The position numbers and the translations under genes were made by a program. Below are positions 1 to 14,705 of a DNA stretch of 64,000 nt, piece after piece. The number at the start of each line of letters is the position of its first letter. The stretch's first letter is position 1. The notes beneath the pieces are model-generated. The model was given only the letters and a program-made list of their open reading frames with translations. It searched no databases and was not told the DNA's origin. Source of the DNA: an uncultured Solirubrobacterales bacterium (GTDB taxonomy: Bacteria > Actinomycetota > Thermoleophilia > Solirubrobacterales > 70-9); assembly GCA_963842375.1 (NCBI GenBank), contig CAWJGB010000013.1:170665-234664 (forward strand), written 5' to 3'.

Positions 1-38
1 CGATGAGGTGCGGCTAGGTGCTTTGGGAGTCATCCGGT

Positions 39-52
39 TGTGTGTGTGTGTG
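39..52. repeat. (TG)7 dinucleotide repeat inside a GT-rich tract downstream of the first collagen-like gene
   Basis: Direct reading: tgtgtgtgtgtgtg at 39-52. The paralogous position behind the second copy (about 1100-1135) is GT-rich but degenerate. Confidence 0.9.
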
Positions 53-84
53 ATTTTCGGGTCGTTGTGGTGGTTTGTCGAGTT

Positions 85-101
85 CCCGCCCTCGGGGCGG
101 C
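85..101 (-). terminator. GC-rich hairpin about 10 nt after the stop of the 111..929 gene (no U-tract)
   Basis: The ccgcc/ggcgg stem with a 5-nt loop can be read directly. Its position just 3' of the stop codon fits a terminator, but the U-run is missing, so this is weak. Confidence 0.3.
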
Positions 102-110
102 GGTCACCGC

Positions 111-929
111 CTATGGCACCTGGTTATAGGCGGTGACCGCCCAGGTGCCTTCGCCTTCTATAATTTGTGCTTCACCTTCTGCTCCTTCCGGCCCTTCGAG
201 ATAGACCAGGAAGCCCCAGGGAGAGGCTTCTTCGAAGCTACCGCCGAACCCCTGTGCCTGCCTCTTATGTACTTCGCTGAAGTGGTGAGAAGGACCCACT
301 AAAGACTGGGTGTGCGCTTCGTATACACAGAGCCAGCCGGGGGCTGCGGTCGGGAACTTAATGGTGCCTGTGCATCCTTCTCCGTTTCCGCCGTGTTCTT
401 GTTGTTGTGTCGTGACGAACCGAGCCTGACCTTCTTGGATTCCGACTGGGTTGTTGAAATTTTCTTCAGGGAAGAAGGGTGTCAGTGGGATCGGGTAGGT
501 GATTCCCGCCTTAATATCTACCCCAATGGGGGCATTGCTAATTACACCGGACCCATAATCCGACCAGACACCGGTCTCGGTCTTGCCGGGGGGGAGGGTT
601 TCGGGGTATGAGGCGGGGTTGCCCGGTTCGCCTTTGGGGCCCTGTTCGCCTTTGGGGCCTTCTTTGCCTAGGGCACCGCTTGTTCCGTTGGTTCCGTTGG
701 CGCCGGCGGGGCCCGCAGGGCCGGGCTTGGAGTTCGCCTTGATCAGGGCGAGGACCTGGGCCTTGGTGAGCGCCTTGGCCTTGGAGGCGGTGGCATGGGA
801 GCCGCCTCCGTTCGCCGCGTAGGCGCCGCCGCCGAGGGCGAGGACGATGGCGAGGACGGAGAGGACGAGGCCGGCGGGGCCGAACTGGTCGCGCAGCGCG
901 GCGTAGGACGTGCGTAGGGACTTGGACAT
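111..929 (-). CDS. Collagen-like (G-X-Y repeat) protein with N-terminal signal-anchor and Cys-containing C-terminal globular domain
   Basis: Start reassigned to ATG 929 (MSKSLRTS), with ggaggag about 12 nt upstream. Hydrophobic anchor GLVLSVLAIVLALGGGAYAA. About 12 G-X-Y triplets (GPAGPAGANGTNGTSGALGKEGPKGEQGPKGEPGNP). The C-terminal domain shares GNGEGCTG...PTAAPGWLCVYE...GTWAVTA with the next gene. Confidence 0.85.
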   Translation of the reverse strand: MSKSLRTSYAALRDQFGPAGLVLSVLAIVLALGGGAYAANGGGSHATASKAKALTKAQVLALIKANSKPGPAGPAGANGTNGTSGALGKEGPKGEQGPKGEPGNPASYPETLPPGKTETGVWSDYGSGVISNAPIGVDIKAGITYPIPLTPFFPEENFNNPVGIQEGQARFVTTQQQEHGGNGEGCTGTIKFPTAAPGWLCVYEAHTQSLVGPSHHFSEVHKRQAQGFGGSFEEASPWGFLVYLEGPEGAEGEAQIIEGEGTWAVTAYNQVP

Positions 930-1151
930 GGTTATCTCTCCTCCTGGGAGTTGAGCGTGAAGAGGAGATGCCCTCCACACACGGGCGTGGCGGCGATCGA
1001 GCAGGGGTCGGCGACCCGAGCGATGGCGCTGGGGCGGGACAGCGAGTTGGAATTAGGGGTTTTGGAAGTCATCGGTTAGTCGGCATGTGGGCTTGGGTTG
1101 ATGTGGCGTGTGTTGGTCGTGTGTGCTTTGTGTGGGTCGCGCGCCCGGCTC

Positions 1152-1180
1152 CCGGAGCGGCCCGCGCTTGGCCGCCCCGG
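1152..1180 (-). terminator. Stable GC hairpin downstream of the second collagen-like gene
   Basis: ccgg-a-gcggcc / loop cgcgctt / ggccgc-c-ccgg, read directly. It lies about 20 nt 3' of the stop at 1201. No U-tract. Confidence 0.35.
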
Positions 1181-1200
1181 GAGGGGTGTGGTGAGGTGGG

Positions 1201-1935
1201 CTATTCGGCGGTCACCGCCCAGGTGCCGAATGCCAGCTCCCTTCTTAGTACAGGCGGTCCAGATTCCTGTGTAGAAATCCTGACCGTGGCACCCCATTGA
1301 TAGGCCGATTCGGACTCTTCAGGTCCCCATACTTCCTGGCGTATTGCGCCAGCACCACCGCGTTCGTAGACGCAGAGCCAGCCCGGAGCGGCGGTCGGAT
1401 GACGGTTACTTCCTGTGCATCCTTCTCCGTTACCACCCCCGAATTGTTGAGATGTGGTGACGTACCGAGCTTGCCCGTGTTTGATCCCCACTTCTTCTTC
1501 TTCAGAGATCACGGGGGCGAGCGGAATCGGGAAGGTGATCCCGGTCATGAGTTCTGCGTCGTAGGGTTCTTCAGCATTGGTTAACCCAGCGATCGCCCAG
1601 ACGCCGATCTCGGTCTTGTGGGAGGGGAGGACTTCGGGGTATGAGGCGGGGTTGCCCGGTTCGCCTTTGGGGCCCGGTTCGCCTTTGGGGCCCGGTTCGC
1701 CCTTGGGGCCGGGGGCGCCGTTGGAACCGTTGGCGCCATTCGTACCGTTGGCGCCGTTCTTGCCGGCGTACTTCTTGGCGATCTTTTCAACTTCCTTGCG
1801 CTGGCCGGAGGTCAGCTTGCCGGCGGCGTAGGCGCCGCCGACCATCGCCATGAGAAGGGCGAGGATGGCGACGGTGAGGCCGGCCTTGCCGAAGGGCTCG
1901 CGGATGGCGCGAACGGGGTGCTTGAGACGTTGCAT
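1201..1935 (-). CDS. Collagen-like (G-X-Y repeat) protein, paralogue of 111..929
   Basis: ATG at 1935. Anchor GLTVAILALLMAMVGGAYAA. About 13 G-X-Y triplets, including three perfect GPKGEP units. The C-terminal domain is conserved with the first copy. Confidence 0.88.
   Translation of the reverse strand: MQRLKHPVRAIREPFGKAGLTVAILALLMAMVGGAYAAGKLTSGQRKEVEKIAKKYAGKNGANGTNGANGSNGAPGPKGEPGPKGEPGPKGEPGNPASYPEVLPSHKTEIGVWAIAGLTNAEEPYDAELMTGITFPIPLAPVISEEEEVGIKHGQARYVTTSQQFGGGNGEGCTGSNRHPTAAPGWLCVYERGGAGAIRQEVWGPEESESAYQWGATVRISTQESGPPVLRRELAFGTWAVTAE
1655..1708. repeat. 3 x 18-nt tandem repeat encoding (GPKGEP)3 inside the collagen-like gene
   Basis: The unit cccggttcgcctttgggg is repeated at 1655, 1673 and 1691. 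The last copy has one mismatch. Confidence 0.9.
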
Positions 1936-2000
1936 CAGGTTGCTTCTCCTTGGGTGATGCCCCCCGGGGTGGGCCGGCCGGCCTTGTTTGGCCGTCGCCG

Positions 2001-2303
2001 TTCGATCTGACCATTGAGACCCCCGCCCGCGGCTGCAAACCGGCGCCTGGCGACGTCCTCGGTCGGCCCCATAGCGCTGCTATGAGCCCTCCCTGCGTCC
2101 TTCTGGAGTTTCGGGATTTTTGCCTCGCCCTCGATACTGCGCTTGGGCGACGCCTGCGAATTTCCCCCTGTATTGCCCCCCACCCCCATTGCGGGGGAAA
2201 TTCGTTCCTCGTGCGTGCGTGCGCCCGAAAAATCCCGAAACTCCAGGTCCTTGCCAGGCTTGATTTTCGCTCGCGAGGCGTGCGCCCCAATAGTCAGATC
2301 GAA
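2001..2303. repeat. Nested imperfect palindrome of about 300 nt (three collinear inverted-repeat pairs)
   Basis: Outer pair 2001-2016 ttcgatctgaccattg / 2288-2303 caatagtcagatcgaa (15 of 16). Middle pair 2103-2121 ctggagtttcgggattttt / 2228-2246, a perfect 19-nt complement. Inner pair 2157-2168 cgaatttccccc / 2193-2204 gggggaaattcg (12 of 12). Confidence 0.85.
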
Positions 2304-3386
2304 TGTCTCCAGCCTGGGGATTTTTTGGGTGGTGGGACGAGGGCCTTGCCTAAACATGGGTGCGCTCCCCTCCTTGTCGGGTGTTGGTCGAGTGACTGGT
2401 GCTGCGGAAGACAAGGTGCACCTCCCTGCCCACCTACCTGCATGAGACGAGGCGGAGTCGCGGGCGCCGCAAGCACAGCGCGCGTCGGGCAAGCCCAACG
2501 CTGTAAGGCGAGCGGCTGGCGACTCCTTGGTGGGCAGAGGGGCGGAAGCTGTGAGGGCCTCTCCCCCGCTCCCGAGGGACGAGGTGGAGGTGGTGGTCCC
2601 GGGGTGGTGAGGAGGGACGAAGCGCCTACTGCGAAAAGGGCGGGTAGGTCGGCAGGAGGCGCTGCGCCGGTGGGCTTGTGAGGGTCGGGGGCCTGCGCGT
2701 AAGCAGCGCGCCCTGCCGACCTGAGGGGATTGTGGGCCGCGGTCGCGGTCAAGGCGCTCGCTGCAAATGCTGCGCCACTCGCTCGCTGCGCAAAGGAATC
2801 AGATCGTGATGCTTGCTCGCGCGGGCTTGCGGTCGCTCGGCCTCGGCCTTCGGCCACCCTTCGGGTGAGTGCGGCCCGGCTGGGGGGGGTGGAACAGACG
2901 CGGGCGACCTCTAGACTGGGGATGGGAAGTCCACCAAGCATCGTTGAGGCCGCCCGCGTAACTGCTCCGGTGAGCCCGTCCGGATCGGGCTCGGAAACGG
3001 CCCCGGGGGCCAGGGAAGACTCCGGGTGCCGCCAATGCCGGCGAGGGGACGCGGGCGGCCCTGGCGCCGGGGGCAGGGAGCACCCCGAAGCCTGGGAAAG
3101 GGCCGCCCCTCCTATTGCTCGCCCTTGCGCCACCCACTCAGGAGAGCAGCGGGGGGGCGCAACTTTTAAGGTCGGGACCGGGCACGAGGGTGCGGGAAGG
3201 TGTGGTCGGCGAGGGGCAGACAGCGGGCGCTCGGTGCAGGCCGAGGCTGCTTCGTCGTCCCAACTGCAAGCGTTCACTCAAACTCCCCCTTCTGCCGGCC
3301 GCTTCCCGAGCGGCCCCCGTAGAACTCGGACTTTCTTGTCCCCATCGCGGGCGGACAAGCCAGATCGTGGCAGGAAGGGAGATGAT

Positions 3387-3402
3387 TGTCAAGAGCGGTA
3401 CA
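3387..3402 (+). promoter_or_regulatory. TGTCA-N6-GTACA motif copy 1 (candidate operator), upstream of D1
   Basis: tgtcaagagcggtaca, read directly. Confidence 0.55.
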
Positions 3403-3451
3403 CAAGATTTGTAACGGGAGGTACCGGCTTTGTCAATCCTGGACCCAAATC

Positions 3452-3467
3452 TGTCACCTCCAGTACA
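3452..3467 (+). promoter_or_regulatory. TGTCA-N6-GTACA motif copy 2, 40 nt upstream of the D1 start
   Basis: tgtcacctccagtaca, read directly. Confidence 0.55.
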
Positions 3468-3506
3468 TCCATTTTGTCCTCGCCCTGACTATCGTGAGCG
3501 CCGGAA

Positions 3507-4835
3507 ATGGCGACAACGGACCCTGTGCCGCAGCAGAGCGGGCCACTGCTTCCAAAGCTGAGCCCAGCAAGGGGGCGCCTGACGCCACAGCTAATCGCTC
3601 GCAATCAGCGCGGGCGCCTGCAGTGGGCGATGGTGGAAGCCGTGGCCCAGCACGGCTTCGCCGGCGTAACGCTGCGCGAGCTAGTCGGGCTGGCGGGAGT
3701 GTCGAAGACGACGTTCTATGAGCACTTCGACTCCAAGCAAGACTGCTTTCTCGAGACCTACGACGAGATCGTCTCCCGGGTCACGACGCGAGTCGGCGAG
3801 GCCTACAGGGAGCCGGGCGATTTCCATGCGAGGCTGGTGAGAGCGCTTTCGACCTTCATGGAGCTGGTTGTGGAGGAGCCGGCGGCGGCGTCTTTCGGGG
3901 TGGTCGAATCGCTGACCCTGGGCAGCGCCGGAGTAGCACACCGCGAACAGAGCTCGAGGGCCTTCGAGCTGATGATCCAGCAGAGCTTCGAGCACTCTCC
4001 ATCTGAGGAGGAGGTGTTGCCGATCACGGTGAGAGCGATCGCCGCCGGTATTCGGGGAGTTGTCTACCGGCGGCTGCGGGCCGGCAGCTGCGAGGATCTA
4101 CCCGACCATGTCGAGGAGCTGGTCGATTGGGCCCTCGGCTACCAGCGGCCGGTCAGCGAGTCGGTCCGAAGGGCCATCGAGGCGGCCCAGATTCCGGGTC
4201 TGAGCGTGGAACCAGCAGCCCGCGAGAACGATGCGGACGAGCCTGACTGGGATGAGCCCCCTGACAGCCGCCGCAGCCGGGCTGAGCTGACCCAGCGTGA
4301 GCGGATCGCCAGGGCAGCGGCTCGGGTGGTGGTCGAGAAGGGCTATGAGGCACTGAGCATCCCGGCAATCTCGGCCGTGGCGGGGACCTCCAATCAGACC
4401 TTCTACGAGAACTTCTCCACCAAGCGAGACGCTTTCCTGAGCGCATTTGAGATTCTCACGGAGAAAGCCCTCGCGACCACCGCGGCGGCCTTTGAGGCCG
4501 CGGGCGACCGACCTGAGGCGATCGGTGCCGCGATACGGGCGATGCTGGAGCACATCGCGGCGAACGATCTGTTTGCCCGCCTCGCTTTCTTTCAGCTTCC
4601 GACCGCGGGTCCGGTAGCACTCGATCACGCCGATCCCGTGATGGACCGCTTCAATTCCCTCCTTGAGCCGGGCACCGCGTCGGGTGGGAGAAACGGTCCG
4701 TTGCCGGGCGTGATCTCTGAGGCAGTTGGAAGCGGTATCTGGTCGGTGATTCAGCACGAGATTGCGCACGAGCGGACGGAGTCGCTACCCGAACTGGCGC
4801 CCGAGATCACGAGAGTCGCGCTCGGATCGCGCTAA
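3507..4835 (+). CDS. Single-chain double-TetR transcriptional regulator (D1)
   Basis: 442 aa with two TetR HTH units: TLRELVGLAGVSKTTFYEHF and SIPAISAVAGTSNQTFYENF. The linker is WDEPPDSRRSRAELTQRERI. Confidence 0.9.
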   Translation: MATTDPVPQQSGPLLPKLSPARGRLTPQLIARNQRGRLQWAMVEAVAQHGFAGVTLRELVGLAGVSKTTFYEHFDSKQDCFLETYDEIVSRVTTRVGEAYREPGDFHARLVRALSTFMELVVEEPAAASFGVVESLTLGSAGVAHREQSSRAFELMIQQSFEHSPSEEEVLPITVRAIAAGIRGVVYRRLRAGSCEDLPDHVEELVDWALGYQRPVSESVRRAIEAAQIPGLSVEPAARENDADEPDWDEPPDSRRSRAELTQRERIARAAARVVVEKGYEALSIPAISAVAGTSNQTFYENFSTKRDAFLSAFEILTEKALATTAAAFEAAGDRPEAIGAAIRAMLEHIAANDLFARLAFFQLPTAGPVALDHADPVMDRFNSLLEPGTASGGRNGPLPGVISEAVGSGIWSVIQHEIAHERTESLPELAPEITRVALGSR

Positions 4836-4866
4836 GAACCTGAGCGAGACTGCCTGAACGGCTCGC

Positions 4867-5517
4867 TCAGGCCTGCGCCAGTCGTCTCGCCTCGGCGGAC
4901 CCCAGGTAGGGGGTGAGGAGCAGCTCGAGGAACTCGGGCTCAAGTGTGAGGAGGAGGTCGGCCTCTTCAGCCAAGAGGTGGCCCGAAATGAGTGAGGTGA
5001 TGCCGCCAATGAGGCTCTGCTCAGTCGATTCGGGCAGCGAGGCACCGAGGGGGTAGCGGGCGCGGCCCTCGCGAAGACGAGAGGCAAGTCGCCTGATCAG
5101 GGCCTGTTGGCGCTCGGTCGCCACCGGACCCGACCCAGCCACCTCGACGGTGAAAACCCTGGCATGAACAGGTGCTTCGGTGAGGAAACGAAGGGCAGCA
5201 TCGAGTGCGGCCTTGACCCGAGAAGGCCAGTCGCGCTCGACATCGCAATCTTCCATGGCATGGGCCCAGAGACGCTCGATGAACCTCTCCTGAGCGGCGA
5301 GGAGGGCGGCGCGGATGTCGTCGAAGTGCGCGTAGAACGTGTCCTCGTTGAGGTCCGAACGGCGGAGGACCAGCTCGACGGTGAGGGCGTCGTAGCCATA
5401 TTCGGCGGCGGCCTTGGTCACCGCAGCGATGAGGAGATCGCGCTCCTCCGTGGGGCTCGACGTGGACTCGCTGTGGGCGCCGATCCGGGAGGCTCGCCTG
5501 GGTTGGTCATCGGCCAC
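4867..5517 (-). CDS. TetR-family transcriptional regulator (classical single unit, s1)
   Basis: 216 aa. HTH region LLIAAVTKAAAEYGYDALTVELVLRRSDLNEDTFYAHF. Convergent with D1 and divergent from D2. Confidence 0.9.
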   Translation of the reverse strand: MADDQPRRASRIGAHSESTSSPTEERDLLIAAVTKAAAEYGYDALTVELVLRRSDLNEDTFYAHFDDIRAALLAAQERFIERLWAHAMEDCDVERDWPSRVKAALDAALRFLTEAPVHARVFTVEVAGSGPVATERQQALIRRLASRLREGRARYPLGASLPESTEQSLIGGITSLISGHLLAEEADLLLTLEPEFLELLLTPYLGSAEARRLAQA

Positions 5518-5550
5518 GGTAGAACCAGCTTATGGAGGTATCGAAATCTC

Positions 5551-5566
5551 TGTCAAGCTGAGTACA
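5551..5566 (+). promoter_or_regulatory. TGTCA-N6-GTACA motif copy 3, centred in the s1/D2 divergent intergenic region
   Basis: tgtcaagctgagtaca. There are 33 nt to the s1 start (5517) and 33 nt to the D2 ATG (5600). Confidence 0.6.
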
Positions 5567-5599
5567 CGCTGGCAACCGACGCGGGCTATCGTGGATGGG

Positions 5600-6955
5600 A
5601 TGGCGGCGACTTCAGAGGGTCCTGAATCGCTCTTTCGGAGACTTTCAGGAAGGCCGGGAGGGATTGGGCAGGAGGCGGTCGCCCGCCATCAGCGAGCGCG
5701 ACTCGAGGGAGCGATGCTAGAGGCGGTGAGGCGCCACGGCTATGCGACAGTGACGCTGAGGGAGCTAGTGGGGCTGGCCGGGGTCTCCAAGAGCACCTTC
5801 TATGAGCACTTCGACGATAAGCAGGCGTGCTTCCTGGCGACCTTCGAGGAGATCGTCGCCCTAGGGGTAGAACAAATCGAGGCGGCCTATGGCTCAGAGC
5901 AGGGGCCCGAGAAGCGGCTGCGAACGGCCTTCGAGCGGCTCGCCGAGCTGGTCGCCGAGCAACCGGCGGAGGCCGCACTGGTGATCGTCGACTCGGTCAG
6001 CCTAGGGGCGGCCTCGGTAGAGCCGCGGGCACGCGTCGCCCAGATCTTCGAGTCGCTGATCCACGAGAGCGCGGCGGAGATCGGGCATGGTGGCGGTGTG
6101 ATCTCGAGGGTGACCACACGGGCCATCGTCGGCGGGATCCGCAGCCTCATCTATCGCTCGCTGCGCGCCGGGAATCCCGAGCGTCTCCGAGGGTATGCCG
6201 CCGAGCTGGTGCAGTGGGGGCTGGACTACCAACTCGAGGCGGAACGTCGTGCCGCAGGTGCCGCGGACGTGGGGGCACGGCTAGTGGCGGCGCTTGGCTC
6301 GGATGCAATTGAGAGGGCGGAGAGTCCGGAGGAGTCGTCGGAGGGATCGAGCCTTGCCTGGGAAGAGCCCGCGAACAGCGAACGCTCACGCGCCGAACTC
6401 AGCCAGCGGGAGCGAATGTTGCGAGCCACAGCCCAGGTAGCAGTGGAGAAGGGCTATGCACGGCTCAGCATCCCAGCGATCTCCGCGGCGGCGGGAACCT
6501 CCAACCAGACTTTCTATGAGCACTTCGACTCCAAGCAGACGGCCTTTTTGGCCGCCTATGAGGCACTTGTGCGAAGAGCACTTGAGAGGATCGCCACCGC
6601 CGTCGCGGCGCAAGATGACTGGCTGGAGGGAACGGCGGCCGGGATCGTCGCGCTGCTCGGCTGCTTCGTGCGAGACCCGATGTTGAGGACGCTGGCATTC
6701 GTCGAGAGGCCAGCGGCGGGCGTGGCGGCACTTGACCGGGCCGAGACGCTGCTCGATCTGTTCACGGCGTTCCTGCGGCCGGAGCCGCTCCCCGCGAACG
6801 TTGCCCGGCGCCCGCCCGACGTAGTGATCGAAGCTATGGCCGGAGGGGTTTGGGCCGCGGTCGAGGGCGAGACCACAGGGGGATTGGTCGACTCGGTGCC
6901 GGAGTTGGCCTCAGAGCTGCTGAACATCGTTCTGGTGCCGTTCGGGGTGTTATGA
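5600..6955 (+). CDS. Single-chain double-TetR transcriptional regulator (D2)
   Basis: Start moved from the track's 5414, which overlaps s1, to ATG 5600 (MAATSEGPESLF). An in-frame GTG at 5591 is also possible. HTH units TLRELVGLAGVSKSTFYEHF and SIPAISAAAGTSNQTFYEHF. Confidence 0.88.
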   Translation: MAATSEGPESLFRRLSGRPGGIGQEAVARHQRARLEGAMLEAVRRHGYATVTLRELVGLAGVSKSTFYEHFDDKQACFLATFEEIVALGVEQIEAAYGSEQGPEKRLRTAFERLAELVAEQPAEAALVIVDSVSLGAASVEPRARVAQIFESLIHESAAEIGHGGGVISRVTTRAIVGGIRSLIYRSLRAGNPERLRGYAAELVQWGLDYQLEAERRAAGAADVGARLVAALGSDAIERAESPEESSEGSSLAWEEPANSERSRAELSQRERMLRATAQVAVEKGYARLSIPAISAAAGTSNQTFYEHFDSKQTAFLAAYEALVRRALERIATAVAAQDDWLEGTAAGIVALLGCFVRDPMLRTLAFVERPAAGVAALDRAETLLDLFTAFLRPEPLPANVARRPPDVVIEAMAGGVWAAVEGETTGGLVDSVPELASELLNIVLVPFGVL

Positions 6956-7220
6956 CGATGTCGTGTCATAACACCCCGAATGCCGACCCACCTGGGCGAG
7001 CACCGCCTGGCTTCGCGGTCAAGTGGCCGAAGCCAGCGGCCCGAGCCTTGGTGAGGCAGGCGACCCGGGCGTCGAGGCCGGGACAGCCCCGGCGCCCGAG
7101 GGTCCTGCATCATGGCGCCGTCTCCAGGGAGCAGACGACGGCCGCATGGCTTCGTCCCAGGGAAAGACGGCAGTCGATTTTGCGCCATCCCGTATTCATG
7201 TCGGCCCTCTTCGGGCTCCG

Positions 7221-7256
7221 TGTCAATGACGGTACACCGATGTAAGCACCGGTACA
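7221..7256 (+). promoter_or_regulatory. Two adjacent motif copies (tgtcaatgacggtaca and tgtaagcaccggtaca) upstream of D3
   Basis: Read directly at 7221-7236 and 7241-7256. The second copy has TGTAA instead of TGTCA. Confidence 0.5.
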
Positions 7257-7335
7257 TACATTGTCAACAGGAGGAGCCCGGTGGTCAGCCGCGTCGGCGA
7301 GCGGAGTGGACGGCCGGGTCTATCGTGAGGGGGCG

Positions 7336-8661
7336 ATGACACCGGCCTCCCCCCTTCCCGAGCCGCTGTTCCCGAGCCTCGCAGGACGGCGCGGTGAGAT
7401 CGGGCCCCAGCAGGTCGCGCGCCACCAGCAGGGCCGCCTTCAGGGGGCGATGGTGGAGGCGGTCGCCCGCCATGGTTACGCGACGACGACGGTCGGGGAG
7501 CTGGTGGCTCTGGCGGGGGTATCGAAGAGCACCTTCTACGAGCACTTCGGAGGCAAGCAGGAGTGCTTCCTGGCCACCTTCGATGAGATCGTCACCCAGG
7601 CCAGCGAGCGGGTAGGAGTCGCCTATCGGTCGGAGACGGGATTTCGGGAGCGGCTGAGGGCAGCGATGGAGGCGTTCGTCGAGATCGTCGCCGAGGCGCC
7701 GGCGGCCACAGCGCTCGTGGTCGTCGACTCGCTCAGCCTGGGGGCGGCTGGAGTGGGACCCCGCGAGCGCTCGGTTGAGGCCTTCGAGTTGATGTTCCGC
7801 CAGAGCTTCGCGCAGGCGCCCGAGCGCGGCGAGGTCTCGCAGGTAACGACCCGGGCGATCGTCGCCGGCATCCGGCGGGTCGTCTACCGCTGCCTGCGCG
7901 AAGGTCGGCCCGAAAAGTTCCGCGACCATGCCGAGGAGCTGCTGGAGTGGGCGCTGGCCTATCAACGCCCGGGCGTAGCGCCAGGCTCCGCGGCGACGTC
8001 GATTGCCCTCTCCACCCCCACGAAGACGTCAGCGAAGGAGTCCCAGACGGACGCACCGAGCTGGGATGAGCCCCCTGACAGCCGCCGCAGCCGGGCTGAG
8101 CTGACCCAGCGTGAGCGGATCGTCCGTGCGGCGGCGCTGGTAGCGACGGACAATGGTTATGAGTCGCTCAGCATCCCGGCGATCTCCGCGGCGGCGGGAA
8201 CCTCCAACCAGACCTTCTACGAGCACTTCGCCAGCAAGGAGGAGGCCTTCATCGCCGCCTTCGACGCCCTTGCCGGACAAGCCCTGCGCGCCGGCACCGC
8301 CGCGGCGGCGGCGAGGCGCGGCGACTGGATCGAGTCGGTCGGCGCGGGGATCCGGGGGCTGCTGGAGTTCATCGTAGCCAACCGCCTCTTCGCGCATCTC
8401 GCCATCTTCCAGCTGCCGACCGCGGGGGCAGACGCGCTGGACCACGCCGACGCAACGGCGCGACGCTTTACCTCCTTTCTGGAGCCAGACGCCCTGCCCG
8501 ATGGGCTGGGCGCGCCCGTGCCGGCGGTGGTGATCGAGGCGATCGGCGGCGGGGTGTGGGCGGTGATCCAGCACGAGATCGCGCACGAACGGGTGGCCTC
8601 GCTGCCGCAACTGGCACCACAGATTGCGAGGATCGTGCTGGCACCATTGGGTGCGAGGTAA
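7336..8661 (+). CDS. Single-chain double-TetR transcriptional regulator (D3)
   Basis: Start set to ATG 7336 (MTPASPLPEPLFPSL) by analogy with the paralogues. HTH units TVGELVALAGVSKSTFYEHF and SIPAISAAAGTSNQTFYEHF. Confidence 0.88.
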   Translation: MTPASPLPEPLFPSLAGRRGEIGPQQVARHQQGRLQGAMVEAVARHGYATTTVGELVALAGVSKSTFYEHFGGKQECFLATFDEIVTQASERVGVAYRSETGFRERLRAAMEAFVEIVAEAPAATALVVVDSLSLGAAGVGPRERSVEAFELMFRQSFAQAPERGEVSQVTTRAIVAGIRRVVYRCLREGRPEKFRDHAEELLEWALAYQRPGVAPGSAATSIALSTPTKTSAKESQTDAPSWDEPPDSRRSRAELTQRERIVRAAALVATDNGYESLSIPAISAAAGTSNQTFYEHFASKEEAFIAAFDALAGQALRAGTAAAAARRGDWIESVGAGIRGLLEFIVANRLFAHLAIFQLPTAGADALDHADATARRFTSFLEPDALPDGLGAPVPAVVIEAIGGGVWAVIQHEIAHERVASLPQLAPQIARIVLAPLGAR

Positions 8662-8678
8662 GCCCAGAGCGCCCAGAC

Positions 8679-9329
8679 TCAGGCTTGCGCCAGGCGCGTC
8701 GCCTCCGAGCGCCCTAGGTAAGGGGTGAGGAGGAGCTCGAGGAACTCGGGCTCCAGTGCATGGAGAAGGTCGGCCTCTTCGGCCAAGAGGTGGCCTGAGA
8801 TAAGTGAGGCAATGCCGCCAATCACAGCCTGCTCTGTCGATCGGGGCAGTGTGGCGGCGTCAGGGTAGTGGGCGCGGCCCTCGCGAAGACGAGAGGCGAG
8901 GCGCTCGATCAGGGACAGCTGACGCCCGGTCGCGACCGGGCCGGCAGCAACTACCTCAACCACGAAAACCCTGGCATGGGCCGGCGCGTCGGTGAGGAAG
9001 CCGAGGGCAGCGTCGAGTGCCGCCTTTACCTGGGCCGGCCACTCGCGTTGCACATCGCAAACTTCCATAACGTGGGTCCAGAAACGCTCGAAGAATCTAT
9101 CTTGCGCAGCCAGCAGACTGCGGCGCATGTCGGCGAAGTGCTCGTAGAAGGCGGCCTCCGTCAGGCCCGCGCGGCGAACCACGAACTCAACCGTGAGGGC
9201 GTCGTAGCCGTATTCCGCGGCGGCCTTGGTGATCGCGGCAATCAAGAGATCGCGCTCCCCCGTAGCGCTCGATGTGGACTCGCTGCGGGAATCGATCCGA
9301 GAGGGGCGCTTGGGTTGATCGTCAGACAC
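8679..9329 (-). CDS. TetR-family transcriptional regulator (classical single unit, s2), paralogue of s1
   Basis: Start set to GTG 9329 (VSDDQPKRPSRIDSRSES). This aligns with MADDQPRRASRIGAHSES of s1 and gives the identical 651-nt length. Confidence 0.85.
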   Translation of the reverse strand: MSDDQPKRPSRIDSRSESTSSATGERDLLIAAITKAAAEYGYDALTVEFVVRRAGLTEAAFYEHFADMRRSLLAAQDRFFERFWTHVMEVCDVQREWPAQVKAALDAALGFLTDAPAHARVFVVEVVAAGPVATGRQLSLIERLASRLREGRAHYPDAATLPRSTEQAVIGGIASLISGHLLAEEADLLHALEPEFLELLLTPYLGRSEATRLAQA

Positions 9330-9361
9330 GGCGGGCCAGCTTATGGATGCATGGGAGTTTC

Positions 9362-9377
9362 TGTCAAGCTGAGTACA
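9362..9377 (+). promoter_or_regulatory. TGTCA-N6-GTACA motif copy 6 in the s2/D4 divergent intergenic region
   Basis: tgtcaagctgagtaca, identical to copy 3 and 32 nt from the s2 start. Confidence 0.6.
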
Positions 9378-9458
9378 TGCTGCACAAAGTGTGGTGGCTT
9401 CCCATCTGAGTGCGACGAGCTCGGCCTGACGGGGGCGACGCGGGCTATGGTGGATGGG

Positions 9459-10793
9459 ATGTCGCCAGCGTCGAGGGGCTCTGATAGAAGCCCTGAACCG
9501 ATTTTCCCGGGACTTGCGGGAAGGCCGGGAGGGATTGGGCGTGAGGAGGTCGTCCGCAATCAGCGAGCGAGGCTGGACGGAGCAATGCTGGAGGCGGTGA
9601 GGCGCCACGGCTACCCGGCCGTGACTATTGGCGAGCTGGTGGGGCTGGCCGGGGTCTCCAAGAGCACCTTCTACGAGCACTTTGCCGACAAGCAGGAGTG
9701 CTTCTTCGCTGCTTTCGACGAAGTTATGGCTGCGGTCACCGAGCAGATCGGGCGCGCGTACAGATCAAAGTCCGACTTTCGAGAGCGACTATACGCAGCG
9801 TTCCAGGCATACGTAGAGTTCGTCATCGAAGAACCTGCGGGGACTCATCTGACGCTCGTGGACTCGCTCAGCCTGGGGACTGCGGGGGTGGCCCGGCGGC
9901 GAGAAGCGGCAGAAGCCTTCGAGTTGATGATTCGCCAGAGCTTTGAGCAGACGCCTGAGCGGGGCGATGTCTCCGACCTTACGATTCGAGCGATCGTGGG
10001 CGGCATCCAGCGTGTCGTCTTCCGATGCGTGAGGAGCGGGCAAACCGCGCAGTTGCGCAATAACCTTGAGGACTTAGTCAATTGGGGCCTCTCCTACCAG
10101 CGCCCTGGCGGTGCCGCAGCTTTACAAACACGGGCGGGTGGGTCGACCGCACCGAAGCCCAAGGCCACAGACAGCACAGCCGATGAGGAAGTCTGGGACG
10201 AGCGGCCCGACAGCCTCCGCAGCCGCGCGACGCTGACGCAGCGCGAGCGGATGGTTCGTGCGGCGGCCATAGTGGCTGCCGAAGGTGGCTATGCAAAGCT
10301 CAGCATCCCAGCGATCACGAGCGCTGCGGGAGTCTCCAATCAGACCTTCTATGAGCACTTCACCGGCAAACAGCAGGCGTTTTTGGAGGCCCTCGAAATT
10401 CTTGGTCGGCGCGCCGTGGTCCGAATCGCCGCTGCGACTAAAGCTAAGGAGGCTTGGACTGACTCGGTCGGTGCCGGGCTGGAAGAGCTACTGAAATATT
10501 CTGCCGAATATCCACTGCTTTCCCGGCTCCCGTTCATCGAGGTGCTGGCCGCGGGATCTCCCGGACTTGACCACGTCGATCTGCTGATGGACAGCGTGAC
10601 CGCCTTGATCAATTTCAGCGCTGCCCCCGCGGCGGTGGGCGGACCCCTGTCCGACGTCGTTATTGAGGCGATCGGTGGCGGCATCTACGCGGTGATCCAA
10701 AACGAGGTGGCGGAGGGCCGGACGGAGGCGCTGCCCGGACTCTCGCGGGAGATCACCTTCATTGCGCTAGCGCCGTCGGCATGGCGTAGGTGA
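9459..10793 (+). CDS. Single-chain double-TetR transcriptional regulator (D4)
   Basis: Start at ATG 9459 (MSPASRGSDRSPEPIFPGL) or ATG 9447. The track ORF from 8868 overlaps s2 and is rejected. HTH units TIGELVGLAGVSKSTFYEHF and SIPAITSAAGVSNQTFYEHF. Confidence 0.85.
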   Translation: MSPASRGSDRSPEPIFPGLAGRPGGIGREEVVRNQRARLDGAMLEAVRRHGYPAVTIGELVGLAGVSKSTFYEHFADKQECFFAAFDEVMAAVTEQIGRAYRSKSDFRERLYAAFQAYVEFVIEEPAGTHLTLVDSLSLGTAGVARRREAAEAFELMIRQSFEQTPERGDVSDLTIRAIVGGIQRVVFRCVRSGQTAQLRNNLEDLVNWGLSYQRPGGAAALQTRAGGSTAPKPKATDSTADEEVWDERPDSLRSRATLTQRERMVRAAAIVAAEGGYAKLSIPAITSAAGVSNQTFYEHFTGKQQAFLEALEILGRRAVVRIAAATKAKEAWTDSVGAGLEELLKYSAEYPLLSRLPFIEVLAAGSPGLDHVDLLMDSVTALINFSAAPAAVGGPLSDVVIEAIGGGIYAVIQNEVAEGRTEALPGLSREITFIALAPSAWRR

Positions 10794-10848
10794 AATCCAT
10801 CCTCGGCGATAACAAAGGGAGTCATCGCGCCGGCGGATTGGGGCAATC

Positions 10849-12153
10849 GTGACCGGGCCCGAACCGCTTTTCCCGAAGCTGCCGCCGGGCCGAACCGAAA
10901 GAAGTCCGAAGGAAACCGCCCGCCATCAGCGAGCCCGGCTGATGGGCGCGATGGTAGAGGCGGTCTCTCGTAACAGATACCAAGCGACAACGCTGCGCGA
11001 GCTGGTCTCGCTGGCGGGGGTATCAAACTCGACCTTCTATGAGCACTTCGACTCAAAGCAGGACTGTTTCCTGGCGACTTTTGATGAGATCGTCGCGTTG
11101 GCGAGCGAGCGGATCGAACGCGCCTATAGAGCAGAGTCCGCTCTTCGGGAGCGGCTGCGCGCAGCCTTCGATGAGTTGATGGACATCTTGGCTGAAGAGC
11201 CCGCGGCGACGCATCTGGTGATCGTAGACTCACTCAGCCTGGGTGCAGCGGGGGTGATCCGCCGCCAGCGCATGGCAGAGAAATTCGAGCTGATGTTCCG
11301 CCAGAGCTTTGAGCAGGCGCCTGAGCGCGGTGAAGTCTCCGATCTGACGATCCGAGCAATCGTCGGCGGCATACGAAGTGTCGTCTACCGCAGCATCCGG
11401 GGAGGAGAAACCGGCGAATTACGCAAGCACGTCGGCGAGCTACTCGACTGGGGTCTTTCCTACCAGCGCCGAGGTGGTGCGAGCGCTTCGCGATTGCCGA
11501 CCACAGCGTTCAAGCCGACATTGACAGCCACCGAAGGATCGGACGATGAGCCAGGGTGGGACGAGCCCCCCGACAGCCCTCGCAGCCGCTCGAAGCTGAC
11601 GCAACGCGAGCGGATTGTCCGTGCGGCGGCGAGGGTGGCCGACCAGACGGGCTATGAGTCGCTCAGTATTCCGGCGATCACAAGTGCCGCGGGAGTATCA
11701 AATCAGACCTTCTACCAGTCCTTCCGGAGCAAGCAGGAGGCATTCCTAGCTGCACTCGACATTCTCGGCCCCCGCTCCTGGCCTCAGATCATCGCGGCGA
11801 CTCGAGCTCAGGAGGGCTGGATCGACGCGGTCGGCGCCGGGCTCAGAACGCTCCTGACATCTATCGCAGAAAATCCACTCTTTGCCCGGCTCGCGTTCAT
11901 TGAGGCACTCACAGCAGGGTCCGTCGCGGCGGATCGCGCCATTGGGGGAACTGAAAGAGTCACCGCCCTGTTCAATTTCAGCGCGATTCCCGCCGGCCTG
12001 GGAGCGCGGCCGCCCGACATCGTTGTCGAAGCGATCGGCGGCGGCATCTGGCTGGTGATTCAACACGAGGTAGCGCAAGGGCGGACGGAGTCGCTGCCGG
12101 AGCTGACGCCCGAGATCGCCTACATCCTACTAGCGCCCTTCGGCGCGGTATAG
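10849..12153 (+). CDS. Single-chain double-TetR transcriptional regulator (D5)
   Basis: GTG start. HTH units TLRELVSLAGVSNSTFYEHF and SIPAITSAAGVSNQTFYQSF. It lies only 55 nt after D4 with no motif between them, so the two are probably co-transcribed. Confidence 0.88.
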   Translation: MTGPEPLFPKLPPGRTERSPKETARHQRARLMGAMVEAVSRNRYQATTLRELVSLAGVSNSTFYEHFDSKQDCFLATFDEIVALASERIERAYRAESALRERLRAAFDELMDILAEEPAATHLVIVDSLSLGAAGVIRRQRMAEKFELMFRQSFEQAPERGEVSDLTIRAIVGGIRSVVYRSIRGGETGELRKHVGELLDWGLSYQRRGGASASRLPTTAFKPTLTATEGSDDEPGWDEPPDSPRSRSKLTQRERIVRAAARVADQTGYESLSIPAITSAAGVSNQTFYQSFRSKQEAFLAALDILGPRSWPQIIAATRAQEGWIDAVGAGLRTLLTSIAENPLFARLAFIEALTAGSVAADRAIGGTERVTALFNFSAIPAGLGARPPDIVVEAIGGGIWLVIQHEVAQGRTESLPELTPEIAYILLAPFGAV

Positions 12154-12502
12154 GCCACTCACCGAAGAGCAACGTTCGAGGAAGGTGACGCAAGGATCGA
12201 GAATCAGCGGCTCCCGGCAGCAGCTTTGACAGGAGGGAAGTGTGCCCGGAAAGTCCGCTTGTGGGGGCTCCACATGGCGCTTTGTTGAACTGCCTCTTTT
12301 GGCATGCAAGCGCCCCGAACGCAGAAAGGAAAGAGACCCGCGGCCGGGGGACGCCTGCACTACTCAGCGCCGTCCCAGGGAAAAGACGGCGTTATTGCCA
12401 TTCAAGTCAACCCCTGCCCGACTCTCGCCGATCTGGGGCGACTCTGGATGGACGGTGGGAAGCCGCCACCCGAGGCGGATGATAGGCCGGAGCGAGAGCG
12501 AT

Positions 12503-12540
12503 TGTCAAGGCCTCTACATATAGATGTCAAGGTCGCTACA
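12503..12540 (+). promoter_or_regulatory. Two tandem variant motif copies (TGTCA-N6-CTACA) with no obvious downstream gene
   Basis: tgtcaaggcctctaca at 12503-12518 and tgtcaaggtcgctaca at 12525-12540, read directly. Confidence 0.45.
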
Positions 12541-13119
12541 GATTCCCTTTCACAACCCTGCTCGGCGGTCCAGCCGCTCGATTGCCGGGGTGGCCCGCAC
12601 CTGGGCGTGCGCGCCTCCGTGACTTTGCAGGTGGGTGCGCCCTGCGGAAGCCGATGTCGTGATGCGGATGGACTTGTCGGCTTCGCTTGGCCGACCCCGC
12701 GGCTGCTGGGTCCGGGGATTGGGAATATCGGCGGAAGATCGATTGTTCGATGGCGGGTGAGAGCAGGCGTTCATCTTGTGCTCGGGTAGGTGGGCGGCTA
12801 CGGCCAATACCGCGAAGATCCCCATCAGGACACCGAGAACCAGCGGGCCCATCATTATCAGTTGCGACCGAATGGTCGGCCGGCTCGGTTGAGGTGACAC
12901 AGCGTCTCCCTTGTCGATGCGCCCGTGCCCGGGCTGTGGTGTAGGTCGCGCGAGCGACCCTCTCATCCCCAAGACGCAGAAAGGACGTGGATCGATACCC
13001 CGCTAAACCGGCGAGGGGGATCCTCACCCCAGACCTCAGGTGGAGCCCCCTCCACCTGCGGCGCCAGGCACTCGTCGATGATGGTGGCGACTTCGACGCG
13101 GCGCTCGGGGAACCGACCT

Positions 13120-13435
13120 TCAGAGGCCGAGGAGAACAACGAGGGCCTCGTCGACGGCGCGCAGCTCGGCGGCCCCGAGGCGGCCGGCGAAGTCCTTCGA
13201 GCCGTTCGATGTCGAGCGCGCGCAACTGCTCGACCATCACGCGCGTTCGCTCCCCGGCGAGTACCACCTCGGGGCGGAAGGTGGCTGGCCGTACGCTGCG
13301 TGAGGTGGGCGCGACCAGCACTGTGGAGAGCCCGAGCAGCTCGTCGGTCTGCACGAGCACGGCATAACGGGGGCCGAACTGGTCGCGACCGCGACGCGAC
13401 GGCAGCCGCACGCGGTAGACATCGCCGCGTGTCAA
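13120..13435 (-). pseudogene. mazF: MazF/PemK-family toxin with an apparent +1 frameshift
   Basis: TTG start at 13435. The N-terminal 80 aa, MTRGDVYRVRLP...GPRYAVLVQTD...VLVAPTS...VEQLRALDIERLE, is typical PemK/MazF. The expected C-terminus DFAGRLGAAELRAVDEALVVLLGL-stop is in the next frame and ends at 13120. The span is 316 nt, which is 3n+1. The track ORF running on to 12536 is read-through. Confidence 0.8.
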
Positions 13436-13680
13436 TCTGGCCAGTCAGCGGCGATCGCGTCCATGTCGGCCATAACGCGGGCGACCGCCGCGCGGTCGGC
13501 GGGGTCGGCCGCCAAGCGCTGCACCTCCTCGGCGAGTGCGGAGCGGCTTCGGCGCCTAGCAGCCGCCTCGCGGAGTGCAGTGCGCACGGCCTCGGAGTCG
13601 CTGATTGCGCCACTGCCACGGACGATGTTGAGGGCGGCGACGGAGCTGTCGTCGAGGCGGACGTGGAGGGAGCGGGGCAT
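13432..13680 (-). CDS. Ribbon-helix-helix type antitoxin partner of MazF
   Basis: Start set to ATG 13680 (MPRSLHVRLDDSSVAALNIV...). 82 aa. Its TGA stop overlaps the TTG start of mazF (ttga). Confidence 0.75.
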   Translation of the reverse strand: MPRSLHVRLDDSSVAALNIVRGSGAISDSEAVRTALREAAARRRSRSALAEEVQRLAADPADRAAVARVMADMDAIAADWPD

Positions 13681-13690
13681 GGGAAGTAGC

Positions 13691-13709
13691 GTAGCATGAA
13701 ATGTGCTAC
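13691..13709. promoter_or_regulatory. Palindrome GTAGCA-N7-TGCTAC just upstream of the antitoxin gene (candidate autoregulatory operator)
   Basis: Read directly, 11 nt upstream of the 13680 start and preceded by the direct repeat gtagcgtagc. Confidence 0.4.
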
Positions 13710-14034
13710 ACATGACCATGACATGCGCCGCAAGCGGCGCTGCCTGTAGGGGAAGTTCGCAGCGGCGTCATCTCCACAACTCGCGTGCCAGGCATCCGTC
13801 GAAGTGCGGGGAGAGGTCGACTTCGGTGGGCGAGGCACGCTCGGGCAGGGGGCGGGACGAATCGTTGGACAGAGGGCCATCGCCGGGATAAGGATTGGAG
13901 GTGGGATTTGACCCCCAGGTCCTTTTGGCCGTGCGGGAGCTCGTCAATTCGGCCGAGCCCTGAATCCCACGCGAGCGAACGGGGCGGGGCTAGGCTGGGG
14001 CCGACTCTTATCTGTGTCACGACAGGAGGGAACG

Positions 14035-14628
14035 ATGCTCAAAGGACTCCGCCGCCCCTCGCCGGCGCTGCTCGTCTCGCTGATCGCCCTGTTCGCGGCG
14101 CTGGCAGGGACCGTCTACGCCGCCAGCAAGATCAACGGCAAGACAATCAAGGTGAAGTCGATCCCAGGCAACCGGCTGACACCGGGCTCGCTGCCGGGCA
14201 ACCGCCTGAAGGCGAACTCTGTGACCGGATCGCAGGTCGACGAGTCGACGCTGGGCCAGGTGCCGAGCGCCAACAACGCCCAGAACGCGATTGCGGTCGA
14301 CGGCCACACCGCCGGCTGCCCGGCGGGGACGAAGCCATTCGCCGGCGCCTGCTGGGAGACGACGGCGCGCGGCGCGGCGAGCGAGCCTTCCGCGGCCCAG
14401 GCGTGCACCGAAGCCGGCGGTCAGCTGCCCGACGCGCTCAGCCTGCGTTCCTTCGCGCTGACGCCGGGGGTCACACTCGACGCCGGTGGTGAGTGGTCGA
14501 ACAGCATCAACGAAGTCACCGGCGAAAACGCATACACCGGCGTCACCGTCTCCCCCACCGGAGCCGTCAACCTCGACAATCAGACCGACGCTAAGAAATT
14601 CCGCTGCGTGCTGCCGCTCCTTCGCTGA
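14035..14628 (+). CDS. Secreted or anchored hypothetical protein sharing the N-terminal anchor type of the collagen-like proteins
   Basis: ATG 14035 with aggaggg 7 nt upstream. Anchor PALLVSLIALFAALAGTVYAASK. Repeated PGNRL segments. C-terminal domain contains four Cys. Confidence 0.75.
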   Translation: MLKGLRRPSPALLVSLIALFAALAGTVYAASKINGKTIKVKSIPGNRLTPGSLPGNRLKANSVTGSQVDESTLGQVPSANNAQNAIAVDGHTAGCPAGTKPFAGACWETTARGAASEPSAAQACTEAGGQLPDALSLRSFALTPGVTLDAGGEWSNSINEVTGENAYTGVTVSPTGAVNLDNQTDAKKFRCVLPLLR

Positions 14629-14705
14629 GCGCCGTTGCCCGATATGCAGAATAGCCTCAACGGTCGCCGGGATCGAGGAGCCCAGGAATAGGATGGCGAG
14701 GCCCG

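Follow-up and report, generated by a model that had tools for sequence, protein, structure and literature searches.

The 64,000-nt stretch analysed here (hereafter the window; part of contig CAWJGB010000013.1 of an uncultured Solirubrobacterales bacterium) carries at positions 3507-12153 an array of seven intact genes, all of TetR type, five of which (D1-D5) encode double-TetR proteins and two (T1 and T2) single TetR-like proteins, as established from the open reading frame (ORF) listing and the translations. This array is a lineage-specific, unusually large cluster of widespread, uncharacterised double TetRs resembling Mce3R, together with companion single TetRs. The double-TetR class and this type of cluster were known already; what is new here is an oriented, asymmetric 16-bp motif. 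In the interpretation that we favour, and consider reasonably probable, the D proteins act as single-chain pseudo-dimers on a shared operator and constitute an auto- and cross-regulating paralogue cluster with remote targets.

The genes are arranged in the order D1 (3507-4835, plus strand, 442 aa), T1 (4867-5517, minus strand, 216 aa), D2 (5600-6955, plus strand, 451 aa, with an alternative in-frame GTG start at 5591), D3 (7336-8661, plus strand, 441 aa, identical to database protein P0001), T2 (8679-9329, minus strand, 216 aa), D4 (9459-10793, plus strand, 444 aa from the ATG at 9459, with alternative in-frame starts at ATG 9447 and GTG 9450, i.e. ~444-448 aa) and D5 (10849-12153, plus strand, 434 aa). 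The remaining long ORFs of 3507-12153 overlap these seven genes and were not counted as genes. All seven ORFs are intact and have kept the family-invariant residues, and all seven proteins exceed the gathering threshold of 24 bits for TetR_N (Pfam PF00440). With two helix-turn-helix (HTH) units per D protein and one per T protein, the array holds 12 units, and the preliminary description of this DNA, which had counted seven TetR genes, 12 HTH units and nothing else, was borne out by the ORF and Pfam analyses. T1 and T2 are divergent from D2 and D4, as had also been described, and form head-to-head pairs separated by 82 bp (T1/D2) and ~120-130 bp (T2/D4); tail-to-tail pairs are formed by T1 with D1 (31 bp) and by T2 with D3 (17 bp). 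D5 begins 55 bp past D4 without a 16-bp motif of its own, and is therefore probably co-transcribed with D4. Within 200 bp divergent of the array regulators no non-regulator target was found, only TetR genes (T1/D2, T2/D4), and no transporter or enzyme gene adjoins the array, which sets it apart from the classical pair of a TetR regulator with its pump or enzyme (PMC3511530). A role as a defence system was considered and dropped, the PADLOC defence models having given no meaningful match to D1, D3, T1 and the unannotated neighbours.

Each D protein contains two TetR_N stretches, at approximately residues 40-80 and 260-315, with scores of 73-80 bits (74 bits for D1) against the cut-off of 24. 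The structure of D3 was predicted with AlphaFold2 (predicted local distance difference test, pLDDT, 90.8; predicted template modelling score, pTM, 0.89) and consists of two nine-helix TetR units joined by a low-confidence linker of ~30 residues (residues 211-240). Two complete TetR units per polypeptide, the defining feature of double TetR family regulators (TFRs), were found both by Pfam and in the secondary structure of the model (9 + 9 helices). When the model was compared with the Protein Data Bank (PDB) using Foldseek, the top match was Mce3R (9b7y_A; 438 columns, E-value 1.9e-8, template modelling (TM) scores 0.48/0.53, root-mean-square deviation (rmsd) 9.7 A), and the other matches were single TetR chains aligned on one half, led by FadR, FasR, DarR and EthR2 (target-TM up to 0.84). 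The earlier reading of D1-D5 as fusions of two complete TetR units was upheld by Pfam, the D3 model and Foldseek, and the AlphaFold check that it had proposed for an intramolecular pseudo-dimer, run here for D3, returned a confident compact fold whose best full-length match is Mce3R. The pTM of 0.89 places the two halves confidently relative to each other, and the modelled D protein is likely to be a single-chain intramolecular pseudo-dimer.

Among D1-D5, N-terminal halves share 45-62% identity and C-terminal halves 46-64%, and identity between N- and C-halves is 21-30% over 150-190 residues, with occasional short local matches of at most 39%. Among the five proteins, identity is 75-78% in the HTH segments versus 44-53% in the ligand-binding parts. 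The conserved strings listed in the preliminary description (HTH ends, N-terminal arm and inter-unit linker) are generally present, with exceptions in D1, whose first-half HTH string is GVSKTTFYEHF and whose N-terminal arm deviates, and in the linkers of D2 (WEEPANSERSRAELSQRER) and D4 (WDERPDSLRSRATLTQRER). In an alignment of 79 homologues, positions P10, F12, P13, L15 ... H30, Q31, R34 and L35 of the N-terminal arm and W243, E245-S249, S252, R253, L256 and Q258-R261 of the junction are invariant or nearly so; the arm and the junction are therefore family hallmarks and not local quirks.

Mce3R (Rv1963c) of Mycobacterium tuberculosis, the closest known system, was described from a cryo-electron microscopy structure (PDB 9b7y) as an asymmetric single-chain TetR with an "unusual double TFR motif", which binds an operator of two non-palindromic 25-bp sites 53 bp apart (PMC11667970). 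Like a D protein, it combines two complete but dissimilar TetR units, whose HTH motifs are not identical, in a chain of ~400-450 aa. Its halves are similar to TetRs of the acyl-CoA type, and the 53-bp arrangement of its two-site operator is comparable to that of the D-promoter sites described below, which are 51 bp apart. The two differ in sequence: the profile match to 9b7y is generic and non-colinear (E-value 1e-6, 31 bits), the D C-terminal half aligning to the first half of Mce3R, and identity in the structural alignment is 15%. The (E)PLFP N-terminal arm and the WDEPPDS..RSR..LTQRER junction belong to the D family and not to Mce3R. The predicted site in the D array spans 16 bp versus 25 bp, and Mce3R is encoded by a single gene beside the mce3 operon that it represses, whereas the array combines five paralogues and two single TetRs with no cargo. 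The D proteins fall outside the Mce3R orthologous group, and no mce or yrbE gene was found in the annotated parts of the window. Since the sequence link to Mce3R is generic and non-colinear, the D fusion is either independent or very old.

The asymmetric motif was found as an intergenic repeat, TGTCAA-N6-TACA, whose extended consensus is TGTCAAG-N3-GGTACA (16 bp). The whole window contains 6 exact copies and a seventh with one mismatch (starts at 3387, 3452, 5551, 7221, 9362, 12503 and 12525), all on the plus strand and all in intergenic DNA of the array, for an expected count of 0.34 (one-mismatch copies included); none of 100 shuffles reached 7. These copies lie upstream of D1, D2/T1, D3 and D4/T2, and otherwise only just after D5. 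When 2.14 Mb of non-redundant related loci were added to the window, 63 exact copies were counted on the strand of the D genes and 0 on the opposite strand (0.2 expected per strand), and one-mismatch copies numbered 45 versus 5. The consensus half-sites are TGTCAAG and TGTACC, so that symmetry is limited to the outer TGT/ACA, and the inner six positions are asymmetric with a fixed polarity at ~108 sites. In the related loci, copies are concentrated at three positions before D starts (-121, -54 and -12) and at a distance of 33-39 nt before the starts of T genes; a further copy at -121 is usual in D promoters, where the two sites (-121, -54) are 51 bp apart, and the -12 copy lies over the start in tandem D-D pairs. 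Most "orphan" copies of other loci adjoin truncated T or D genes, and the motif is therefore essentially private to the D/T gene family.

In the window, the predicted operator cluster upstream of D1 (3387-3467, plus strand) comprises an exact copy at 3387-3402, an inverted copy with two mismatches at 3420-3435 and a one-mismatch copy at 3452-3467; its sites at -120 and -55 agree with the family modes of -121 and -54. The cluster upstream of D3 (7221-7266, plus strand) is composed of an exact copy (7221-7236), a two-mismatch copy (7241-7256) and an inverted two-mismatch copy (7251-7266). A single predicted operator, TGTCAAGCTGAGTACA, is present in the T1/D2 divergent region (5551-5566, plus strand) and is repeated identically in the T2/D4 divergent region (9362-9377, plus strand); over the surrounding 47 nt, the two divergent regions are 85% identical. 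The TTGACA of the T1/D2 site is, on the minus strand, the -35 box of T1. The predicted T1 promoter reads TTGACA, 18 nt, TAAGCT, 9 nt and the GTG at 5517, and is canonical for a leaderless or near-leaderless mRNA. An orphan operator pair follows D5 (12503-12540, plus strand), with two tandem exact copies and no adjoining TetR gene.

A second recurrent element precedes the D genes. The octamer CTATCGTG, which contains a -10-like box (TAnnnT), occurs at 3489-3496 on the plus strand, 11 nt before the D1 ATG, and again at 5586-5593 (D2) and 7320-7327 (D3), with the variant CTATGGTG at 9445-9452 (D4). It stands 7-11 nt before the ATG, and 3 of its 4 copies in the window are upstream of D1-D3; the D4 ATG at 9459 is located 7 nt past the TATGGT hexamer, in the same geometry as in D2. 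In D1 and D3 the octamer does not lie in the reading frame; it is therefore a signal at the DNA level, read most simply as a TAnnnT -10 box.

These promoter features raise the alternative that the 16-bp motif is mainly a promoter element (back-to-back -35-like hexamers, TTGACA to the left and GGTACA to the right) or is recognised by a dedicated sigma factor, the array then being a set of co-expressed paralogues. The spacing TTGACA-18-TAAGCT before T1 and TTGACA-18-TATCAT at 12508-12479 would be expected in this case, and the right half of the -54 sites abuts the expected -35 position of the D promoters, given the CTATCGTG -10-like box. However, copies are also found at -121 and, over the start, at -12, and not all of these can be -35 boxes; additional copies in inverted orientation are present at 3420-3435 and 7251-7266, and essentially no other promoter carries the motif, either in the 64-kb window or in the 2.1 Mb of related loci. 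The three registers relative to D genes and the opposite orientation relative to T genes fit a protein-binding site better than a fixed promoter element, and we consider the promoter-element explanation unlikely.

In the mechanism proposed for the D proteins as operator-binding pseudo-dimers, the two different TetR units of each D chain would fold against each other in an intramolecular pseudo-dimer similar to that of Mce3R, and would thereby offer two different heads for reading DNA, together with a composite region for ligand binding. The D proteins would recognise the asymmetric site TGTCAAG-N3-GGTACA, located over or just upstream of the -35 region in D promoters and exactly on the -35 box (TTGACA of the opposite strand) in T promoters, and would repress by occluding the -35 region until ligands release them. 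Because the recognition helices are nearly the same and the ligand-binding halves have diverged, the D paralogues are expected to compete for the same sites and to respond to different small molecules. The outcome would be an auto- and cross-repressing circuit of four to six transcription units (D1, T1/D2, D3, T2/D4-D5), with mRNAs carrying short leaders or none. The ligands would probably be lipid or acyl-CoA-like, to judge from the fold neighbours and from the association of relatives with MMPL transporters and GT2 glycosyltransferases. The genes finally controlled would not be adjacent, and presumably have the same site at other places in the genome; locally, the orphan operator pair with the conserved non-coding module after D5 would be the only candidate for an output.

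The cross-regulation suggested in the preliminary description becomes plausible in this scheme, as the presence of one motif at the promoter regions of D1, D2, D3, D4, T1 and T2 lends in silico support to mutual regulation. TetR regulators located less than 200 bp from a divergent neighbour regulate that neighbour (PMC3511530), and by this rule regulation is predicted within both T1/D2 (82 bp) and T2/D4 (~120-130 bp). That D and not T proteins bind the motif, that they repress, that their ligands are of the above class and that their targets are remote, we infer from sequence. The choice of D as binder was made because the motif is asymmetric and strictly polar and the D protein is the obvious asymmetric protein, by analogy with Mce3R. 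The distribution of the motif among homologues is consistent with this choice: nearly all motif-bearing D genes encode an N-terminal recognition helix with VSK(S/T)T and a C-terminal one with (T/V)SNQT...FYEHF, and close D homologues without the motif mostly differ in the recognition helices (VSKSA, SNKT/SNVT, FYDHF).

Alternatively, the motif could be bound by the classical T proteins, as homodimers or, in relatives, as Ta/Tb heterodimers, the D sites being elsewhere and the D genes under a common T repressor. In every T promoter the motif coincides exactly with the -35, at 33-39 nt from the start; T and D genes are found together in most motif-bearing loci, and divergent T/D pairs closer than 200 bp fit a repressor that controls itself and its neighbour (PMC3511530). 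Yet a homodimer would be expected to prefer a palindrome, whereas the ~108 sites are asymmetric with fixed polarity; moreover, the T recognition helix starts with acidic residues and TetR_N scores of T proteins are marginal, motif-carrying D genes without an intact T gene within 10 kb occur in two loci (L018, L022), and the presence of the motif follows the D recognition helices. On balance, binding by T proteins instead of D proteins is judged fairly unlikely, although it is the strongest of the alternatives considered.

Several points weigh against D proteins as the operator-binding pseudo-dimers. Read on the T strand, the left half of the motif gives a perfect -35 hexamer, and promoter constraint could account for part of the motif's conservation. 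T proteins, or T plus D proteins, could be the binders, and the loci do not separate D from T in this respect because the two nearly always co-occur. The motif is missing from several homologues whose N-terminal heads look unchanged (L029, L032, L033, L036). The structural similarity to Mce3R is moderate (TM ~0.5, rmsd 9.7 A), and the monomer model would also be compatible with an inter-chain swapped dimer. The suggested ligand class relies on fold resemblance to acyl-CoA TetRs and on sub-threshold FasR matches, no target other than the regulators themselves was identified, and function is throughout deduced from the DNA and protein sequences.

The D family is large. A database search returned more than 858 full-length homologues with 55-71% identity, the named ones being "AcrR/TetR family transcriptional regulator" proteins of Solirubrobacterales, and a profile built from 79 homologues matched 1,414 clusters (50% identity) at an E-value of at most 1e-30 among 1.84 billion representatives, mostly from Solirubrobacterales soil metagenome-assembled genomes (MAGs). 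A scan of one genome per species gave 277 relatives, all of them from Solirubrobacterales, Thermoleophilia, Conexibacteraceae or unclassified Actinomycetota MAGs. Uninterrupted runs of at least 4 TetR units were found in 37 of 136 related loci, the largest having 8 units, so that the 12 units of the window are the maximum. The runs of relatives include DDtt (L001, L002, L021, L025), DDtDt (L012), DDD, tDTtTT and others, and a T gene stands tail-to-tail within 150 nt of 25 of 63 close D genes. The closest relatives (L085-L087) consist of a D1 orthologue (68% identity), two convergent T genes of two subtypes and a D3 orthologue (70%), with an IS1595 transposase and HicA beside this core. Identity of D3 with proteins of other genomes is 70-71%, versus 52-60% with D1, D2, D4 and D5; the paralogues are therefore old, and the window contains an expanded version of a conserved core. 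An apparent D5 orthologue with a common LFPKLPPGRTERS N-terminus is present in L014; a metagenome scan with D5 gave no close D5 orthologue (best match 53% identical).

The array could also be a redundant, drifting product of recent tandem duplication in a variable genomic island, with no joint function. Its surroundings are accessory in nature (toxin-antitoxin pairs, a restriction-modification pair, collagen-repeat ORFs, long non-coding stretches), relatives adjoin insertion sequence (IS) elements and HicA, array size varies continuously among loci, and decayed D/T copies were found in three other loci (L004, L038, L167). On the other side, all seven ORFs are intact with the invariant residues kept, the identities of D3 given above show the paralogues to be old, and operators and -10-like boxes are conserved at each promoter. 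A cluster drifting without joint function is accordingly regarded as very improbable.

The survey of relatives also bears on the novelty of the array. The preliminary description had presented it as a system not described before, which does not hold: double TetRs are known, with a solved structure and a non-palindromic operator, 204 double-TFR proteins had been predicted in Actinomycetes in 2013 (PMC3711444), the family is large and TetR-only runs are common. It had itself named an ordinary paralogue cluster as an outcome that would speak against its view, and this is largely what was found (TetR-only runs in 37 of 136 loci, and the same D, T, T, D core in the closest relatives). Homologous loci with an adjacent transporter or enzyme were another such outcome, and here the picture is mixed: an MMPL transporter gene is present within 10 kb in ~18 of ~80 related loci, but not consistently, and is directly divergent from a D gene only once (L082). 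A GT2 glycosyltransferase gene lies just past the D/T genes in ~18 distinct related loci, and a trio of unannotated genes is a further recurrent neighbour. None of these (MMPL, GT2 neighbours of the relatives, unannotated trio) was found within the 64-kb window, and tblastn searches of all frames of the window flanks against 80 related loci gave no conserved neighbour.

Other TetR systems share single features with the array. FadR/YsiA of Bacillus (3whb, 5gp9), FasR of M. tuberculosis (6o6n-p) and DarR (8sua and others) superpose on each D half with target-TM values of 0.6-0.84, and FadR, FasR and DarR are the best sequence matches of D proteins in PDB and NCBIfam; unlike D proteins, they are single-unit proteins forming symmetric homodimers, and by NCBIfam cut-offs D proteins are not members of these families. 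None of the NCBIfam equivalogs (FasR, FadR, BetI, MftR and others) was reached, the best being FasR with 61-80 bits against a cut-off of 330. Gamma-butyrolactone receptor clusters of Streptomyces (ScbR/ScbR2, AvaR1-3, JadR2/R3 and similar) comprise close paralogous TetRs with related operators, mutual repression and different ligands; these receptors are single-unit homodimers with roughly palindromic operators, linked to an autoregulator synthase and an antibiotic cluster. In the array, by contrast, no synthase or biosynthetic cluster is present. Engineered single-chain TetR and tandem TetR fusions (in part PMC3711444) resemble D proteins in that a flexible linker puts both DNA-reading heads on one chain, but they are artificial, and the units that they join are usually identical or unrelated, each retaining its palindromic operator.

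No new kind of system is revealed by the array, and its use lies in the predicted operator and the paralogue series. If the operator assignment is true, the D proteins would be a natural series (five paralogues with the same heads and different pockets, and hundreds of homologues) for the study of asymmetric DNA reading, and Mce3R, the one solved example, would be joined by a second, apparently independently fused family of at least 1,400 clusters. In that case D proteins would also be attractive for synthetic biology as compact sensors that do not cross-dimerise. For annotation purposes, the ~440-aa "AcrR/TetR family" proteins of Solirubrobacterales can be considered as a distinct double-unit family with a predictable site usable for regulon mapping.

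The T proteins are more closely related to each other (75% identity between T1 and T2) than to either D half (20-29% identity, over essentially the full unit length). Their recognition helices start with acidic residues, NEDT in T1 (LNEDTFYAHF) and TEAA in T2. The TetR_N score of T1 is marginal (24.9 bits against the cut-off of 24; 34.2 bits for T2), and the related Tb of L087, a "Tb"-type gene to which T1 is 48% identical, has no Pfam match. At the DNA level, identity is 80-85% between T1 and T2 and between their promoter regions (4866-5165 versus 8678-8977, and 5525-5571 versus 9336-9382). This far exceeds the similarity of the neighbouring D2 and D4 (~50% in protein sequence) and suggests gene conversion, stronger constraint acting on T, or ligand-binding parts that diverge fast in the D proteins.

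Some loci (L005, L010 and similar) contain adjacent co-directional Tb-Ta pairs to which D queries align over the full length, as to a single D gene. Judging from these alignments, the double TetR may have arisen by fusion of a Tb-Ta-like pair, and the unfused pairs could act as heterodimers. Unfused N-half/C-half pairs were also considered as ancestors, but the one half-length match examined (P0179, in L167) looks like a decayed D gene.

In four relatives (L001/L081, L002, L021, L035), a class II fumarase gene is divergent from the outer T gene, and the T/fumarase intergenic region of L001 (L001/L081, 12595-12729) contains a one-mismatch copy of the motif; the fumarase gene is a possible non-regulator target of the D/T family. 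In L038 (12725-13230), an exact copy is located 89 nt upstream of an ORF on the minus strand (133 aa, good codon bias), which may be SnoaL/NTF2-like and is another possible non-TetR target.

The region to the right of D5 begins with 350 bp of non-coding DNA. A module at 12305-12540, which includes the two orphan operator copies, is 74% identical over 242 nt to L014 12428-12663, located downstream of the apparent D5 orthologue of that locus. As single-base indels break every frame, a coding region is ruled out, and the conserved non-coding part (12305-12502, minus strand) was retained as a candidate small structured RNA. The fold energy of the minus strand has a z-score of -2.8 versus shuffles (-0.76 for the plus strand), and in the minus-strand consensus of the two sequences all 47 pairs are kept, with 4 compensatory and 11 one-sided changes (38 pairs for the plus strand). 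Only two sigma-70-like matches were found in 1900-13800, both in this module and on the minus strand; the better one, TTGACA-18-TATCAT (12508 to 12479), agrees at 11 of 12 positions, and the minus-strand -10 box is not conserved in L014. An nhmmer search over 166 loci found the module only in the window and in L014, and a gapped pattern scan of metagenome contigs found none.

The post-D5 operator block resembles the block upstream of D1; in an alignment of the post-D5 region with the spacer between D2 and D3 and with the DNA upstream of D1, nothing was shared beyond the operator block and a short hairpin loop, CCAGGGAAA. By this resemblance the block may be the promoter of a lost D gene; it may also, as a lead from two sequences only, drive a minus-strand RNA. 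An extension of the latter idea is that the array functions as a self-contained signal-integration hub, in which D repressors of the same specificity and different pockets would combine several metabolite signals at shared operators, the local output being a ~200-nt structured minus-strand RNA after D5 under the double operator 12503-12540. This idea, which would come near the control of non-coding flanks suggested in the preliminary description, is rather improbable.

The flanks had been described as ORF-poor and the array as having no cargo, which holds for the left flank and for the absence of adjacent cargo. In the right flank, no gene is recognisable from 12154 to ~13100, but a PemK/MazF-like toxin ORF (12536-13435, minus strand, 299 aa) begins at 13435 and reads through to 12536, continuing past its ~80-110-aa domain as an Arg/Pro-rich tail, so that ORFs are not strictly absent from this flank; the read-through may be due to a lost stop codon, to a frameshift, or be a genuine extension. 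It is preceded by a MazE/RHH-like antitoxin ORF (13432-13719, minus strand). Further on are a DUF5615 (PIN-like) protein (15944-16309, minus strand) with a small upstream partner ORF, the pair spanning 15944-16732, and a type II restriction-modification pair made of an XhoI-family endonuclease (18557-19276, minus strand, E-value 1.8e-43) and an Eco57I/N6_Mtase-type methylase (19277-20932, minus strand). Ordinary chromosomal genes (glycosyltransferase, hydantoinase/oxoprolinase, cysteine synthase-like, Suf) are found farther right. From these surroundings, the array is located in a variable, accessory patch of the chromosome.

On the left, two collagen-repeat (G-X-Y) ORFs (111-980 and 1201-1935, minus strand) score one just above and one just below the Pfam threshold. 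Between them and D1 (1936-3506), no codon-position G + C periodicity, no Pfam match and no TetR remnant was detected. Hidden cargo genes or TetR pseudogenes in the flanks were considered and rejected: blastx comparison of the stretches 1-3506 and 12154-14700 with the halves of every D and T protein gave nothing below an E-value of 0.1, and Pfam, applied to the long flank ORFs, gave only the collagen repeats and the PemK domain. Rfam searches (at the gathering threshold over the whole window, and at E-values up to 1 over 1900-13500) returned nothing credible, and the tRNA scan was empty. The left flank contains at 1990-2314 a ~325-nt, near-continuous long hairpin with a perfect 19-nt inverted repeat (2103-2121/2228-2246) and a fold energy of -156.5 kcal/mol (z-score -7.4 versus shuffles). 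No further copies of it were seen in the window or in the related loci; the hairpin could be an element similar to a miniature inverted-repeat transposable element (MITE) or a structured RNA.

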